Assembly: GCA_034530615.2 (NCBI GenBank)
Contig: JAVRCV020000043.1
Location: forward strand, 1-64,000
DNA length: 64,000 bases
Direction of reading: 5' to 3'
DNA from: Aulosira sp. ZfuVER01
GTDB lineage: Bacteria; Cyanobacteriota; Cyanobacteriia; Cyanobacteriales; Nostocaceae
In this document: piece after piece, positions 5,887 through 13,072 of the stretch
Position numbering within the stretch: position 1 is the first letter of the stretch
Layout: the number at the start of each line of letters is the position of its first letter
Program-made: the position numbers and the translations under genes
The notes under the pieces: generated by a model
What the model saw: only the letters and a program-made list of their open reading frames with translations
Told to the model about the DNA's origin: nothing
The model's database searches: none

Positions 5887-5989
5887 GAGTAGCAGCAGAG
5901 GCGTTAGGCAAGATTGGCTATTTCCATAGAACCAGTAACGTCAGCTATTTTTTTACAAATTAAATTACTCACCTGTTAATCAATGATGA

Positions 5990-6139
5990 AAAAGTCCGCC
6001 CACAAGGGGTTGGAGTTTTTAGGCATTGGGAATGGGGCATGGGGAAGAAGCTACCAATGCCCTATGCCCTATGCCCCAAGCGGCGGGGCGGCTGTCCCTC
6101 TCCACCCACAAGAGGATGGAGAGGGACAGCCGCTTTCAA
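5990..6139. mobile_element. Possible non-autonomous IS200/IS605-type remnant (two related hairpins around heptamer repeats)
   Basis: Perfect 17-bp inverted repeat at 6088-6104/6117-6133. Its loop motif CCCACAAG.GG.TGGAG also occurs near 5998-6015. GGGCATT/ATGCCC repeats lie between the two, and the element ends in TTCAA. Confidence 0.35.
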
Positions 6140-6156
6140 TGAATTACTAAATATCA

Positions 6157-6573
6157 TCAATTATGAATGGGGCGATCGCCTACAATTTCATGCCAAACAT
6201 ATTGTTTCCAATTCACAGGGATTAAACCTTTCTTAACAAGGCTATTTCTCATACCATCATGCTTTTTATCAAGCCGAAGCGCATGACATACAGGGCAAAG
6301 AGTTCTTAAATTAGATGCATGATTGCTACCACCTGAAGATAAAGGACGAATATGGTCGATGTGAGCAACCCTAAGCTTTACTTCACCCATGCATAAGCCA
6401 TTGCTTTTTGGCGGTGTATTGGATGGACTTTGACAAAGACCGCGATCGCGCTTGTAAATACGCTGCCGTGTTCTCTCCCATTGCTCTGGTGGTTGTCGCC
6501 GCCACCAATACACTGGAAGGTTTGGATGCTGACGACGTTGCTTAATTTGCAGGTAAAGCTTAATTGATAACAT
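6157..6573 (-). CDS. HNH endonuclease
   Basis: Motifs RIYKRDRGLC and HIDHIRPLSSGGSNHASNLRTLCPVCH. Confidence 0.9.
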   Translation of the reverse strand: MLSIKLYLQIKQRRQHPNLPVYWWRRQPPEQWERTRQRIYKRDRGLCQSPSNTPPKSNGLCMGEVKLRVAHIDHIRPLSSGGSNHASNLRTLCPVCHALRLDKKHDGMRNSLVKKGLIPVNWKQYVWHEIVGDRPIHN

Positions 6574-6651
6574 GACGTGACAAAACCTGACTTAAGATAA
6601 CGTGACTCAACACAACTAGACGCTACTGGACTGAACACAACAGAAGGCGAC
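6567..6651 (-). repeat. 17 x 5-nt periodic array (GTY-NN); candidate guide RNA
   Basis: Minus strand reads GTCGC CTTCT GTTGT GTTCA GTCCA GTAGC GTCTA GTTGT GTTGA GTCAC GTTAT CTTAA GTCAG GTTTT GTCAC GTCAT GTTAT. 14/17 units start with GTY, and all 17 have T at position 2. Confidence 0.85.
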
Positions 6652-6656
6652 ATGTA

Positions 6657-6938
6657 TTAAACAATGGCAAAATTAGCCAGTTCAAAACGCCCATAACCAA
6701 TGCTTTGTCTACCATCACCAATACCGACTAAAGTGCCAGCATTGATAATAGCGGTCTCTAAGGACTTTCTATCAACCACGACTGAATCCCAAAGAATAGT
6801 AAATGAACAGTGCCATCCAGGTTTCACAGCAACGCGGTAACGGATATTCCTAGCTTTAGTTGATGGGTTACGCACGCCAATCACTTCAACGTAGCTATCA
6901 GGCAATTTCTCATTTTTGATAGTTCCTGCCTCGATCAC
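6657..6938 (-). CDS. RAMP/Cas7-like (Vipr-like) protein, C-terminal part, probably truncated
   Basis: Ends in glycine-rich loop AGTLVGIGDGRQSIGYGRF, preceded by RYRVAVKPGWHCSFTILW. Only 93 aa, with an in-frame stop at 6990-6992 upstream. Confidence 0.65.
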   Translation of the reverse strand: MIEAGTIKNEKLPDSYVEVIGVRNPSTKARNIRYRVAVKPGWHCSFTILWDSVVVDRKSLETAIINAGTLVGIGDGRQSIGYGRFELANFAIV

Positions 6939-7032
6939 TTGCGATAAAAATGATTGGGTGTCATACCTAGTTGACAGTGGCTGTAGAGGTCAATTACATT
7001 TTGCTCTCGTGCTTGTAAAGGGCGGGGATTAG

Positions 7033-7551
7033 TCATAGCACCTGCGACCCTTCCATTGGTTCTAAATCTTCTTCCCAAGCAATATCAGCCCTTGTCCAAG
7101 CGGCACTAGGGCTATCTTTGCTCAACCAAATCAAGTAGCACCAATTCCAGCGGCAAAGGTGGGGCGCAAAGCTGTAAAATCTGCCGATCACAGTTCCCCA
7201 ATCACTGTCAGCACCTAGCCAGCGCAGTTGATCGCCGTATAAAAAGCGCGGTGTCTTTGCTGTATCAGGAAAATCAATGGATAAGCCAACAGAATCTGGA
7301 GAAAATTTCTGATGGAGTAATGCTGCTAGCGAATACTGCTGGCTTTGAGCTATCGCACTCACATAATTAGCGAGCAGTTCAGAATTCAGGCTTTGGGCTA
7401 GTTGAGAAATCAGCACCGCCGCTAAGGTTTCTTGTTCTGGCTGCTCACAGTAATCGCTGAGTTTTGCCAATAGTTCAGTTATCGCGAAGTCATCTAAGGC
7501 TTGTAGATAACCTCTGTATTCATCTGTTTTATTGCCAACAGGCTTTAACAT
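7033..7551 (-). CDS. Hypothetical protein of the island
   Basis: 172-aa ORF with an RBS-like CAGGAG upstream and a Trp-rich, SH3-like C-terminus. Confidence 0.7.
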   Translation of the reverse strand: MLKPVGNKTDEYRGYLQALDDFAITELLAKLSDYCEQPEQETLAAVLISQLAQSLNSELLANYVSAIAQSQQYSLAALLHQKFSPDSVGLSIDFPDTAKTPRFLYGDQLRWLGADSDWGTVIGRFYSFAPHLCRWNWCYLIWLSKDSPSAAWTRADIAWEEDLEPMEGSQVL

Positions 7552-7723
7552 GGAATATGTCTCCTGTAGATAGGAGCCGAAAGCCAGCGTGTAACTTTCC
7601 TAGGGTCAACGCTGGCTTTTGACGTTATAAGTAATTATACGCAATTTTTGTGTTTTACAATGTGAATTTATGTGTTATAAGGCTTAAGGCATAAAAGTAC
7701 ATAAGAAAGCTTATGATAGTCAC

Positions 7724-7891
7724 ATGGGAAAAGTAACTGTAACTATTTACATGGAAGAACAAGACAAAGAAGCTCTACAACAGCTAGCGGATGCAGAAGA
7801 GCGCTCTTTGTCGCAAATGGCAGTGTTAATTCTGAAACGGGCAATTAAAAAAGCTCGCGAGGAGGGAACTATTCCCCCAACTCAGGGATAA
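7724..7891 (+). CDS. Ribbon-helix-helix (CopG/Arc-like) DNA-binding protein
   Basis: 55-aa ORF below the ORF-track cutoff: MGKVTVTIYMEEQDKEALQQLADAEERSLSQMAVLILKRAIKKAREEGTIPPTQG (alternating beta strand, helix, RSLS, helix). Confidence 0.85.
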   Translation: MGKVTVTIYMEEQDKEALQQLADAEERSLSQMAVLILKRAIKKAREEGTIPPTQG

Positions 7892-8550
7892 GGAAAATGA
7901 AGCTTAGGTAGATCAGGAGCAGTTTGCCGCTAGCGATCCTGTTGCCAGATGCTCCAGTAGCTAGCATACAAATACTATTGCGATCGCTGAGTTGAGTTGA
8001 CAGCAGTAACCTAATGCGGTGGCATCGCAGAACTGGCATAATTAGTCGATTGAGGGCAACTAATTATGAACCGAAGCCAGGTAGGTGAATTACAGGCTTA
8101 AATCGCTTGTTTATTGCTGCTTCTTAAACTAGTCTCTATCTCTTTGTGAGAGTCCTGCGATCGCTCCAGTAACCATAATTTTGCGGATCACTCGGATCAT
8201 TACATACGGATCATCTTCATCAACCAAAGAAATCCTGCCTTCAGATGGGCTGGCTTTTATCACAACGTGCTTAACCCGAACTTAGGTTCATTGACAAGCT
8301 TTACGAAGACTGATGTCAAGCTTGGCTTTAGCAATTATTTTCAATCCAAGAGTTGAGCAAAAAAACCAGCTTGCTTCAGACTAGGTCGATCACTAATGTA
8401 GCCAAGCAGCCACTAGCAATACATAATATGGCAGCGATCGCATGAAAGACATCCTCAGCAAATTTACAACACATCGCTTCCTCGGATTAGATAGTAGCGC
8501 TTAGAAATAACTATTATTAACTTCTAAAACTCATCCTAATTAGCGAATTA

Positions 8551-8820
8551 TTATGGCGCAATCGAGATTTCTATAAACTGTCCAGGAACTTGGCAACTAG
8601 ACTCAGAGTTACCCCTATCTCCATCTATCAAAATGTAAGCCTTATCTCCTACGATCGCTAATCCTTCAGATGAAGCAGAGAGGGATTGAACAATTTCAGG
8701 ACGAACTTTTGCATTTGGTTTTAAGTTCTTAATGGGTAATTTCCAAAGCACAAAGTTATTTTTTTCAGCTTCCGGCCCACCTGCAATACCCCAAATTAAG
8801 TTCCCGTTTTTAGTTATTTC
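8551..8820 (-). pseudogene. C-terminal fragment of a repeat/beta-propeller-like protein
   Basis: Open frame EITKNGNLIWGIAGGPEAEKNNFVLWKLP...SEGLAIVGDKAYILIDGD; short and lacking an obvious N-terminal part. Confidence 0.5.
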
Positions 8821-9298: not shown

Positions 9299-9343
9299 TA
9301 GCCTTCCAAGCTATTAATGCGGGTTCGATTCCCGCCGCCCGCT
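9299..9343 (+). mobile_element. Attachment site: 3' part of tRNA-Gly(TCC) marking the island boundary
   Basis: TAGCCTTCCAAGCTATTAATGCGGGTTCGATTCCCGCCGCCCGCT gives the anticodon arm, T arm and acceptor 3' strand. The D arm and 5' acceptor strand are absent upstream. Confidence 0.85.
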
Positions 9344-9565: not shown

Positions 9566-10120
9566 ATGACTACACTAGTCAAATCCATCACCTTAGAAGA
9601 ATTTCTACAACTCCCCGAAACCAAACCCGCATCCGAGTACATTGACGGAAAAATTAGCCAAAAACCCATGCCTCAAGGAGAACATAGCCTACTACAAATA
9701 GAACTGTGTGAAGCAATTAACCGGACAGCGAAACCTCAAAAAATTGCTCTTGCTTTGCCTGAAATCCGTTGTGTTTTTGCTGGTGCTGCTATAGTTCCTG
9801 ATATTGCGGTATTTCGTTGGGAACGCATTCCCCGTGAAGCATCAGGTACAATCGCCAACCGCTTTGAAACTTATCCCGACTGGGCTATAGAAATCCTCTC
9901 CCCAGACCAAAGCCAAGCCAAATTTCTCCGTAAATTACTGCACTGCTCCCAAAATGGCACAGAATTAGGATGGTTGATTTTTCCCGATGAAGCCAGCATT
10001 TTAACTATATTGCCAAATCAACGTGTTGAAATGCTCACAGGTACAGACTCACTTCCTATTCTCAACAACATTGATTTATCACTAACTGTTGAACAAGTTT
10101 TTAGCTGGCTAACCCTCTAA
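9566..10120 (+). CDS. Uma2 family (DUF820) endonuclease
   Basis: Motifs LEEFLQLPETKPASEY, IVPDIAV, PDWAIEILSP, GWLI. Confidence 0.92.
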   Translation: MTTLVKSITLEEFLQLPETKPASEYIDGKISQKPMPQGEHSLLQIELCEAINRTAKPQKIALALPEIRCVFAGAAIVPDIAVFRWERIPREASGTIANRFETYPDWAIEILSPDQSQAKFLRKLLHCSQNGTELGWLIFPDEASILTILPNQRVEMLTGTDSLPILNNIDLSLTVEQVFSWLTL

Positions 10121-10167: not shown

Positions 10168-11496
10168 TTACAAACTAAACTCTGCTGCATTATTCTCATC
10201 TAAATTTGTATCTTTACCCGCAGCAGTAGGTTTAAATTTAGAGCCATGAATTAATTCAGCAAAAGCTATTTTTGGGTTTTGGTGGAGAATATTTAACACA
10301 CTAATAAAATCTCGCACAATTTCCCCTGGCGTTAGCAATGCTTCTGCACCCAAGCGATTGACAATTTCTTGCACAAATTCATTTAACTGTCGATTTGTCA
10401 AAGTTTTTTCATGACCATAATTTAGAGCATGAATTTCAGTGATACGTTGCAGAAGCGTAAGAATTTCTTCTTGGCTCAAGGGATTTAATCTAATTACCGG
10501 GCCTGAATATTCTTGAACACCAGCTTGGGTAACAAAGCGGCTTTCTTTGGTACGTCTGCGCCAAGCTTGGTCTGCAAATAATCCTCGATTTGGGTCTTCT
10601 AAAAACTTTGTGGTACCACCAATCAAAATACCCAAATGTTCGGCTTTACACTGCATGGTGTCGTTAAACATTGCTAGCAGTCTATTATAATTTTTTTCTC
10701 GTGTAACAGTAGTTGATATTTGATATAAATGTACTGATTCATCAACTAAAATTAACAGCCCTTTATAGCCAATTTCTGCAACAAATTTTGCCCATAGCTT
10801 GATGTAGTCATACCAACTATCATCATCAATAATGACACGCACTCCTAAAGCAGCTTTTGCTTCAATTTTTGTTGTGAATTCTCCTCGCAACCAACGCATA
10901 GCAGCATTTTTTAAGCCATCATCATCCAATCTATAACTACGCCAATAAGCGATAATGATGGTGCCAAAATCAAATCCGTGAACTAAATCTTCAATATACT
11001 GAACAACTTCCCTAATTTTTGCTTCAACTTGGTCATCAAAACCTTCATCGTTAGGTTTTAGTCCAGCTTCTTTTGCTACTTCTTGTTGGATTTTATTAAT
11101 CCATCCTTCCAAAATTGAAACTAAAGCACCGCCATCAGGACGAGTTTTTGTAGCTAGGCGACTCATCAATTCTCGATAGGTTGCTAAACCTTCGTTGTTA
11201 CTTCCTGCTAGGCGGCGTTCTGAGGATAAATCAGCATCAGCTACTACAAAACCTTGTTCCATCGCACGGCTACGAATCAGTTGCAGTATGAAGCTTTTAC
11301 CGGAACCGTAGTTGCCAATTACAAAACGAAATGCCGATACACCTTCTGCAATATCATCGAGATTCTGTAACAGGCTTTTTAGTTCTTGTTCTCGACCTAC
11401 TGCTATATGTTCAACTCCCATCCTTGGTACTACTCCTGCACCAAGGGAATTAATTAAAGCAGTGGTTATTTTTTTCGAGATTTTGGGTTTTGCCAT
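10168..11496 (-). CDS. DUF2791/BrxD-like P-loop ATPase
   Basis: N-terminal GVVP.G...IAVGR, Walker A GNYGSGKS, Walker B LLILVDE. Confidence 0.85.
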   Translation of the reverse strand: MAKPKISKKITTALINSLGAGVVPRMGVEHIAVGREQELKSLLQNLDDIAEGVSAFRFVIGNYGSGKSFILQLIRSRAMEQGFVVADADLSSERRLAGSNNEGLATYRELMSRLATKTRPDGGALVSILEGWINKIQQEVAKEAGLKPNDEGFDDQVEAKIREVVQYIEDLVHGFDFGTIIIAYWRSYRLDDDGLKNAAMRWLRGEFTTKIEAKAALGVRVIIDDDSWYDYIKLWAKFVAEIGYKGLLILVDESVHLYQISTTVTREKNYNRLLAMFNDTMQCKAEHLGILIGGTTKFLEDPNRGLFADQAWRRRTKESRFVTQAGVQEYSGPVIRLNPLSQEEILTLLQRITEIHALNYGHEKTLTNRQLNEFVQEIVNRLGAEALLTPGEIVRDFISVLNILHQNPKIAFAELIHGSKFKPTAAGKDTNLDENNAAEFSL

Positions 11497-11752
11497 GTAG
11501 TTGATCTCACCTGATTTTGAACGCAGAGGCTTATAGCCAGCAAGTTAAGTCAGGTATATGTTATACCTATTAAGTAATTTTACAACGGCATGAATAATTT
11601 AATTAACTATAGCCATCTTATGTGATTTGTGAGAATTAACGTTTTAACAAACCTCCTACTCCTGCGGAGAATCAAGCTACGCACAGCGTCTCGCAGAGAA
11701 GAAAGCAGAGGACGCCAAGGAAAGAGAAAATTAGCTGAATCATTTAGGGTTG

Positions 11753-13072
11753 TTATGAAGAATGTTGATAGATAGCTATGATTTTTTTGACGTTAGTTAT
11801 ATGCTCGTGATATATTTCTGGATTTTCTACTCTCGGATCAATTATTAGTTCACCTAAAGTATCATCTGCCTTATCATTAATTGAATCAATTAGTAGATTA
11901 GGCATAGTAATATTTGCTTCTGCAATCTGTTTAATGGTATCTCGAGAATTTTCTTGCTCTAAGATAGCTTTTAATACTTGAATTTCATAATCTGGTAGCT
12001 GCTGCAAAAAGATGTTCCATTCTTCTGGTAAAATATCAGACGTATCAGGTTCTATATCTATTATTTCTATGGGTTGTATTAATTCTTCAAAAGGGAAAAT
12101 TTCTTGAATATCTTCCTCTGATTTTTCTGATAAAATTTCTGGATTTATTGTTTCTATTTGTTGAAGTAAATCCCGAACTTGGCTTTGTAACAAGTCGCGT
12201 TCTTCTTGCAATAATGAAACTTGCTCTTGTAAATGCTGCAATTCTGCTTGCTGTTCTACTGTTTTGGTTTGTAAATAATTCAGACTAGATTCTATATTTT
12301 CTCTATTACTTGTTGTATTAATCAGTAATTGGTTTTTCTGATTAACCTCAACTTCTAAATCTTGCAGTTGAATTCGCAGTTCGTATAGTTTTTCTTCTAC
12401 TTGAGGTTTAAGTCTACCTAGCAGAGTTAAATTACTTTCTAGCTCTTGCTTTTCTTGCTGAAGTTCGCAGATTTGATTCTGTAGCTGATTAATTTCGGAG
12501 CGAGAGACATTACAATTCAATTCAAGACGGCGTTTTTCTGATGTAAGAACTGAAAAAGAAGTATTCAGTTCGGTTTTATTTTTATCTAGGCTATGAACTT
12601 CTACTTTTAGAACACTAATTTCAGTTTCTAATTGTTTTTTTTGGCTAGCAAAAGTGCTGAGTTCTCTATGCAGACTATCTCTTTGATTGCGACATTCTGC
12701 TACTTTATTTTGGAGTTGTTTAGATTCTGCGTATAATGAACTACGATGTTCTTCAATTTGATTAATTTCTCGAACGATTCGTGACTTCAATTCTTCAAGT
12801 TCTTTAATTCGTTTCCGCAAAGAATTTAAGACAAGCATTTCATGATTTTTACGCCGTTTATCTACACAAAATGCTGCTGCATAGGTAGCGAATAAAGTAA
12901 TGATGCCTGTGACAAAGGCTTTAGTATAATCCCAGTTAGGGACAAGACTAAGACCAAAACTTACACTAAAGGCAACTATTCCTAGAAACAATCGATTACT
13001 TACTGTTGCTGAGTGCATATTACTTATTTTTAGCCTAGTCAACTTGTCAATATCAGTAGTTTTTAAGGACAT
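11753..13072 (-). CDS. Membrane-anchored coiled-coil protein with TerB C-terminal domain (alternative start 13018)
   Basis: Two N-terminal hydrophobic helices, a long heptad coiled coil, and C-terminal MPNLLIDSINDKADDTLGELIID. Confidence 0.75.
   Translation of the reverse strand: MSLKTTDIDKLTRLKISNMHSATVSNRLFLGIVAFSVSFGLSLVPNWDYTKAFVTGIITLFATYAAAFCVDKRRKNHEMLVLNSLRKRIKELEELKSRIVREINQIEEHRSSLYAESKQLQNKVAECRNQRDSLHRELSTFASQKKQLETEISVLKVEVHSLDKNKTELNTSFSVLTSEKRRLELNCNVSRSEINQLQNQICELQQEKQELESNLTLLGRLKPQVEEKLYELRIQLQDLEVEVNQKNQLLINTTSNRENIESSLNYLQTKTVEQQAELQHLQEQVSLLQEERDLLQSQVRDLLQQIETINPEILSEKSEEDIQEIFPFEELIQPIEIIDIEPDTSDILPEEWNIFLQQLPDYEIQVLKAILEQENSRDTIKQIAEANITMPNLLIDSINDKADDTLGELIIDPRVENPEIYHEHITNVKKIIAIYQHSS

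Follow-up and report, generated by a model that had tools for sequence, protein, structure and literature searches.

A GUY/NN five-nucleotide array in Aulosira sp. ZfuVER01 as the probable, orphaned guide of an HNH-linked VIPR system directed at a phage capsid gene

The window analyzed here, a 64,000-nucleotide stretch of contig JAVRCV020000043.1 from Aulosira sp. ZfuVER01, carries on its minus strand an array of 17 five-nucleotide units (6567..6651) of the form GTY-NN, or GUY/NN as RNA. Six bases upstream of the array, a 93-codon frame with a glycine-rich loop ends on the same strand. This frame is the 3' half of vipr (6657..6941, minus strand; residues 113–206 of 206-aa relatives, with the thumb and the G-loop), a gene of VIPR, the CRISPR-related system described in 2026 (10.64898/2026.04.26.720920). 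On its other side, the array continues into the reading frame of a 138-aa HNH nuclease (6157..6573, minus strand; Pfam HNH, E 1.8e-9; motif residues intact), which is a candidate Vap. The initial annotation had the array right, and its 17 minus-strand units were reproduced exactly; it left the system unnamed and overlooked both the flanking genes and the HNH start codon (6573), which falls inside unit 16. Just downstream of the HNH gene (5985-6150) lies a short palindromic repeat with many copies genome-wide, and at the Scytonema locus L013 a similar-looking insertion parts vipr from the array.

Upstream of the array, about 888 bp are missing when compared with Mojavia pulchra locus L008, and two BLAST segments overlap at the deletion junction (6936..6943, minus strand). 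The deletion removes vipr codons 1–112, so that vipr codon 113 now follows codon 33 of a 102-aa gene in a different reading frame. The first 33 codons of this gene remain (6935..7036, minus strand; HTH-like by eye), and its full-length Mojavia copy has no Pfam match at E 1e-5. Further along are a 172-aa ORF without a convincing family (7033..7551, minus strand), which belongs to a cassette preceding vipr in several Nostocales loci, and the ribbon-helix-helix regulator of that same cassette (7724..7891, plus strand; Pfam RHH_5, E 4e-8). These are followed by the 3' remnant of a DUF3616-like gene (8554..8820, minus strand; residues 257–345 of the Mojavia protein), the second truncation in the island, and by the 3' part of a tRNA-Gly(TCC) (9299..9343, plus strand). 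The latter is an att-like repeat that matches the tRNA-Gly at G000:C58:11824-11894, and no whole tRNA is present at 9299..9343. This repeat suggests that the VIPR cassette sat in an integrated element. Since the DUF3616-like gene is also cut and the tRNA-Gly part looks like an att site, the region appears to be a decaying integrated island beside Shango-like genes. These defence genes (10168-13072) are divergent and comprise SngB (PADLOC, E 2e-178) and SngA/TerB-C; a Uma2-like gene (named by eye; PADLOC PDC-S03) occupies 9566-10120.

The deletion of about 888 bp is likely real rather than an assembly error. Three near-identical root-metagenome runs from one study have contigs that cover the region at continuous depth, and among 18 of the 48 loose ends neither a joint nor a loose end falls at the junction. 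The deletion is likely and not proven because no listed metagenome piece spans the junction. A 415-base contig in two of the root-metagenome runs spans the array, and its three differences all fall outside it. Runs X1–X3 contain two alleles at approximately equal depth across the cassette (6280-8110), between which a 200-bp part of the HNH gene shows 20 differences, and runs X1 and X2 have a single collapsed contig over the array despite the two cassette alleles. Full-length Vipr finds only the remnant at E <= 1 in the genome (completeness 99.99%), meaning that no second copy was detected, and the remnant lacks H20 and the N-terminal helix. With the 5' half of vipr deleted and no second copy found, the locus in this genome is probably a relic.

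The triplet GTY starts 14 of the 17 array units, the exceptions being units 2 and 12 (CTT) and unit 6 (GTA). The invariance of T at position 2 that was first described was borne out in all 17 units, and the canonical GGY triplet of VIPR is thus absent. This absence defines a variant rather than an exclusion, since the discovery paper allows "a related consensus" (10.64898/2026.04.26.720920). The tract resembles the GGY/NN arrays found near more distant Vipr relatives in strand, position, and register. VIPR guides are tandem five-nucleotide units with a fixed triplet and a variable NN pair, approximately 9–16 in number; 17 are found here, 14 of which (units 1–14; 6582..6651, minus strand) are target-specifying, their NN series matching a phage major capsid gene under a one-base-skip rule. 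The terminal units 15–17 (6567..6581, minus strand) are alike in all GTY arrays seen, have no target match, and contain the HNH start codon. When 17-unit windows were scored over all 83 contigs on both strands, the array was the strongest GTY run of the 8.0-Mb genome and no other window exceeded 8/17; the runner-up, on contig C4 (8/17), resembles pentapeptide-repeat coding sequence by eye. At the genome GTY frequency of 0.027, approximately 1e-12 windows of 14/17 are expected by chance per genome. The tract RNA folds no better than its shuffles and lacks a stable fold (z 0.66). VIPR tracts are followed by a conserved, structured 3' tail; here, folding of 6520-6660 is likewise not significant (z -0.55). 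A promoter and terminator scan found no promoter-like or terminator-like site on the minus strand.

Searching for longer proteins with the vipr remnant gave 146 relatives at E <= 0.001 among 189 candidates, the closest of which have 206 aa and share 97–98% identity with the remnant along its length; compared with the C-terminal part of intact 206-aa proteins, the remnant is 98–99% identical. A profile of 97 relatives had the SUSP1 Vipr (36pp_D, E 5.1e-10) as its sole PDB match at E <= 1, 25 of these 97 members matched Pfam RAMPs at E <= 0.1, and the AlphaFold model (pLDDT 91) has a RAMP fold that matches Csm3/Cas7 subunits. These three results identify the gene product as Vipr, and the sole PDB match also identifies the array as a VIPR guide (vrRNA). 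The RRM core, thumb, G-loop, and size of about 20 kDa that define the family are found in intact relatives; the window retains only the C-terminal residues given above. Within the window's family, vipr is present in 7 of 201 genomes, the window's own included. The order vipr-array-HNH holds in all six others, in which vipr extends further at its 5' end and encodes 206 aa where the start is intact. The minimal locus of vipr plus one vap gene is therefore found in the window and in six family genomes. No cas family genes were detected among the neighbours scanned, and no repeat-spacer array was seen beside the tract by inspection.

We gathered 64 Vipr loci from genomes and 44 from viral records; removing the window, five duplicates, and genes that were partial or interrupted left a labelled set of 102 full-length Vipr proteins. 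An HNH match is present in 98 of these 102 loci, and the residues D73, H74, N84, C93, C96, and H97 are invariant in 55 aligned HNH relatives and present in the window copy. In each of the 11 Nostocales loci examined, the HNH ATG is part of a GTCAT unit close to where the tract ends on its 3' side, and the tract, as judged by this overlap, doubles as the 5' leader of the HNH gene. Prediction of a Vipr-HNH complex gave a median of 0.06 and no verdict. The HNH-linked loci probably belong to VIPR type III, as the legend of fig. S21 in the discovery paper indicates (10.64898/2026.04.26.720920).

The arrays of the 102 loci were labelled GG in 78 cases, GT in 18, mixed in 3, and none in 3, although two of the last three do contain G-rich period-5 tracts. 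Pooling the 451 units of GT-labelled arrays gave G in 433, T in 422, and Y in 440. In a quick tree, one branch nested among GG members holds 15 of the 18 GT loci (SH-aLRT 99) and comprises 10 Nostocales, 1 Chroococcidiopsis, and 4 viral contigs. The GUY scaffold is, on this tree, a derived spelling of the canonical GGY/NN. The remaining three GT rows lie elsewhere in the tree and are less pure. Mixed or impure GT/GG arrays without the G-loop insertion described below (L097/L113, L109, L110, L094, and L059) fall outside the main GT branch, which suggests that the second scaffold base has drifted repeatedly.

One extra G-loop residue (position 191) follows directly after D-G-R in 15/15 GT-branch proteins and in 0/78 GG proteins. 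The insertion represents a single evolutionary event, it is one of approximately 40 columns that differ, and it is missing from the three outlying GT rows; it is therefore a candidate rather than an established cause of GUY reading. In the SUSP1 structures, D177-W178-R179 contacts G1, G2, and Y3 (10.64898/2026.04.26.720927). Profile alignment to 36pp_D maps SUSP1 (P. fulva type II VIPR, PDB 36pp) D177, R179, and R138 onto D188, R190, and R148 of the GUY family, while H17, outside the aligned stretch, probably corresponds to H20. All four family residues are kept in 15/15 GTY-branch proteins. The tryptophan W178, which stacks on G2 in SUSP1 (10.64898/2026.04.26.720927), is replaced by glycine in the family, GGY members included (74/78).

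Guide variation was compared over units 3–12 of five close arrays (the window, L008, L014, L015, and L016), which form the first guide group. Pairwise differences at unit positions 1–5 numbered 6, 8, 28, 4, and 4 of 100, and all NN differences stem from unit 8 of the window. Within a guide lineage, NN is kept and the scaffold Y drifts. The second guide group (L003 and L009-L013) has an NN series unrelated to the first, next to Vipr proteins that are 88–93% identical to the Mojavia protein. An identical NN series across homologous loci had been held to speak against stored information; such conservation does exist within one guide lineage, and it breaks down between lineages, where NN is wholly different.

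The suggestion that the NN series stores information is supported by its match to a phage capsid gene when one base is skipped between pairs. An exact IMG/VR scan with nine units and one skipped base, which is the gap-1 pattern originally suggested, gave four matches; two of these continue beyond the nine units and fall, in frame, within a gene of 308 aa. The patterns with gap 0 or 2 proposed alongside it did not fare as well: the contiguous reading gave 0 matches and finds no target, and the skip-2 reading gave one match that does not extend. The 308-aa gene encodes a major head protein (PHROG 264, E 6e-58; PF09950), and one of its carriers is a 119-kb contig with terminal repeats. An identical capsid protein is encoded by the 119-kb phage contig G616:C29, where a scan covering 28 of 81 ORFs revealed genes for terminase, portal, and head protease; this contig (L127-L132) lies inside a Nostocaceae assembly, is CL131-like by its capsid, and also carries several DNA methyltransferases and a DarB-like gene that is split. 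Among 389 genomes of the window's family, three have the capsid gene (100, 82, and 79% identity), with one further match at 24%; the window's genome lacks it, and PLSDB plasmids yielded no copy. The nearest relative from a cultured phage is that of Aphanizomenon phage vB_AphaS-CL131 (64%). No Vipr match occurs in the three capsid-bearing family genomes or in the two viral records.

For scoring, 25 GTY guides were taken without their last three units and compared with 100 unit shuffles each, the shuffled comparison having been proposed in the initial annotation. At skip 1, 11/11 Nostocales guides exceeded 100/100 shuffles, with best scores of 28/28 for L012 and 27/28 for L016, as against 17–22 for Nostocales guides at skips 0, 2, and 3. 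When the G762 contig was scored in full, one of the 11 guides exceeded 49 of its 50 shuffles and the other 10 exceeded all 50. The guide of the window scored 24/28 against G643:C265, 23/28 against G616:C29 and L122, and 22/28 against G647:C54 at skip 1; its best score of 24/28 compares with 19/28 at skips 0, 2, and 3. The guide on a plasmid (pNsp_f) of Nostoc sp. ATCC 53789 scored 26/28 against the capsid gene. The skipped base is codon position 3 for all 12 guides (11 Nostocales and the ATCC 53789 plasmid copy), which represent two independent lineages and not 12 separate tests. The second guide group addresses the same capsid gene on the opposite strand, approximately 190 bp upstream, with up to 28/28. 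For this second NN series the test was blind, as contigs had been picked with the first series only. Of four exact IMG/VR matches to the second series, one is the same capsid contig and three are non-capsid, one of them at 24/28. There is no self-target in the window's genome, where the best skip-1 score is 21/28 against 20–22 for shuffles. A one-base skip, a skip in wobble phase, and the lack of a self-target thus all appear in the sequence comparison. Private changes of the window guide also fit residues of natural capsid variants: P0125 has Val at unit 8, and P0128 has Ala at unit 1 and Arg at unit 13.

The window guide alone matches the target at only 82–86%. Five of six metagenome matches at 22/28 are non-capsid, so chance matches of this size do occur in very large collections. 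Because 22–24/28 arises by chance in the largest collections, the case for the target rests on the convergence of guides and not on the score of the window alone. Metagenomes contained no exact match to a 10-unit pattern specific to the window, which included its own unit 8. On the contigs examined, the 14 more distant GTY guides neither found a target nor beat shuffles, and two viral scans with distant GTY guides gave 0 matches and one non-extending match. An order-wide skip-1 scan (401 genomes, only 27 of the window's family) with up to two mismatches gave a single match, antisense in a transporter-like gene and non-extending; one control match was also obtained, and we attribute the hit to chance. 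The mismatches of the window guide against G616 are of the G-T wobble type in 4/5 cases, and across guides (7/16) an enrichment is unconvincing. Conservation of the capsid around target site A is not exceptional.

Taken as a whole, the array is a real and well-explained feature, the guide of a GUY-scaffold, HNH-linked cyanobacterial VIPR branch. We assign a probability of about 0.9 to the reading that it is the single vrRNA of a host-borne, HNH-armed VIPR system directed against a phage capsid gene and orphaned in the window's genome. The hosts of the system would be heterocystous cyanobacteria, with the guide in the derived GUY/NN spelling. By analogy with the SUSP1 work, in which one Vipr sits on each unit, the fixed triplet is flipped into the protein, NN pairs with DNA, and repression results (10.64898/2026.04.26.720920 and 10.64898/2026.04.26.720927), each GUY triplet in intact relatives would be held by one 206-aa Vipr subunit, which would display the NN pair. 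Double-stranded DNA would then be read by approximately 13–14 of these pairs, each covering two bases and passing over the third. The predicted target is the major capsid gene of a Nostocaceae phage of about 100–120 kb, and the skipped base is the codon wobble base, so that synonymous escape would be of no use to the phage. The bound filament would silence the capsid gene, and the HNH protein probably adds cutting. Expression of the RNA, binding of GUY, cutting by HNH, and control of HNH translation by the tract are all things we infer. The guide in the window is most likely an orphan, a record of past defence.

Alternatively, the VIPR guide may act by silencing transcription only, with the HNH protein not recruited to cut or having another job; repression alone has been demonstrated experimentally for VIPR, and nuclease activity of types III/V is a prediction (10.64898/2026.04.26.720920). 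We consider this restricted version possible but unlikely, given that HNH accompanies nearly all of the labelled loci, its motif residues are invariant, and its start codon overlaps the guide in Nostocales. In addition, a target midway through a late gene should suit cutting better than repression. The same start-codon overlap, together with the lack of a separate promoter-like or terminator-like site on the minus strand, is what could be expected if the tract were mainly a cis-acting leader, a row of Vipr sites controlling HNH translation in which the NN letters are unimportant. NN is nevertheless kept within lineages, two unrelated NN series match the one phage gene, and phage-borne members have 3–6 tracts away from the HNH start; we therefore judge a mainly cis-acting tract to be very improbable, although the tract could serve as a leader as well as a guide.

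The orphaned state is also open to challenge, as vipr could be whole and miscalled through an assembly error, a copy could lie elsewhere, or the 93-aa remnant could serve. The assembly comprises 83 contigs, neither the guide nor the HNH gene is damaged, the truncated upstream gene has a stop that is overlapped by a GTG start at 6938, and the junction is spanned by no listed metagenome piece. Against a functional locus are the recovery of the remnant only from a nearly complete genome, its loss of H20 and the N-terminal helix, the truncation of a neighbouring gene, and the unbroken metagenome depth without a joint or loose end among the 18 of 48 mentioned above; continued function seems improbable, if somewhat less so than a mainly cis-acting tract. 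A decayed microsatellite or protein-coding repeat without an RNA function would agree with the 91-codon ORF that covers the tract (6378-6653) and with the unstable RNA fold. The ORF, however, shrinks to 55 aa in L002 and 77 aa in L006 and is not listed in L003 or L004, and an unstructured repeat tract is what the VIPR model expects. Furthermore, the variation is position-specific, tracks Vipr phylogeny, and predicts a target that two lineages match, which leaves this explanation with almost no weight.

Compared with the VIPR types III/V with nuclease Vap (10.64898/2026.04.26.720920), the system shares a Vipr RAMP of about 200 aa with one accessory gene, a single tract of five-nucleotide units, a cellular and island-like setting, targeting of either strand, and a viral target read by a one-base, wobble-base skip with an NN match of at least 80%. 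It differs in its fixed triplet GUY (YNNGT in the register of that paper), in the one-residue G-loop insertion of the GUY branch, in the broken copy of the window, and in a tract that reaches into the HNH start codon and for which no separate 3' tail was observed. The alternatives named in that paper (NNNGG, YNNNG, and NNNNG) all have the second G, and YNNNG fits the GUY unit only if read one base off. Unlike the present locus, SUSP1 VIPR is phage-borne, with several vrRNAs that have a pseudoknot tail, and with a DNA-binding Vap (10.64898/2026.04.26.720927). Class 1 CRISPR-Cas (Csm3/Cas7) has the RAMP fold and RNA-guided defence in common with it, whereas the pairing here is gapped rather than contiguous and neither a cas operon nor a repeat-spacer array was seen alongside.

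Non-canonical VIPR-like arrays have been grouped into 21 clusters, with GAC/NN, CAC/NN, WGT/NN, and TGH/NN named in the accessible passages (10.64898/2026.10.21.760802). They likewise have a 5-nt period and a non-GGY triplet beside a Vipr-like fold; GTY is unnamed in that text (fig. S10 may include it), and targets are not reported in those passages. A term search of the accessible part of 10.64898/2026.10.15.759431 found no mention of a GTY/GUY array. The text of the discovery paper mentions none of GTY, GUY, cyanobacteria, and Nostoc, though its tables or data may list such loci (10.64898/2026.04.26.720920). No literature on a cyanobacterial GUY VIPR or its capsid target was found in a search that most subscription journals fall outside. 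Because published work already covers nuclease-linked types as well as non-canonical triplets, the novelty is at the level of a variant.

The VIPR experiments reported in 10.64898/2026.04.26.720920 and 10.64898/2026.04.26.720927 concern GGY guides and repression. The present comparison indicates that the one-base-skip code holds with another fixed triplet, accompanied by a candidate protein change, and a GUY/GGY pair could yield two orthogonal programmable binders. It also provides a concrete host-phage pair for an HNH-armed VIPR. As an intact copy exists on a plasmid of the culture-collection strain Nostoc sp. ATCC 53789, whether nuclease VIPRs cut becomes directly testable. The window's own copy, being probably non-functional, is worth less as a reagent, though not as a pointer. 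Two guide lineages against one gene offer a handle on the origin and change of VIPR guides. More tentatively, and with the odds somewhat against it, we propose that the GUY branch constitutes a VIPR code made orthogonal by nature, the G-loop insertion having shifted Vipr reading from GGY to GUY, that in Nostocales it provides hosts with nuclease-armed immunity in which the single guide doubles as a nuclease mRNA leader, and that guide variants track phage alleles. If this is true, two unrelated guides beside Viprs of approximately 90% identity, directed at one capsid gene on opposite strands, would point to a guide-writing route as yet undescribed for VIPR.

Phage-borne GTY VIPR loci with 3–6 tandem guides each were observed at L073:2197-3523, L074:4001-5668, and L078:4001-5405; targets of these guides were not found. 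The guide spacers of L074 and L078 are short and share the word TGGCT(G/A)TAC, a candidate tail or processing site. At L105 and L106, GGY guides lie directly downstream of vipr, parted by a conserved spacer of about 40 nt common to both, which may correspond to the ribozyme-type spacer described when VIPR was discovered (10.64898/2026.04.26.720920). Finally, at L072, on a contig with a Mu-like portal gene, a GTY tract lies approximately 700 bp upstream of vipr with NN mostly CT and TT, and it is possibly a naive or homogenised guide.
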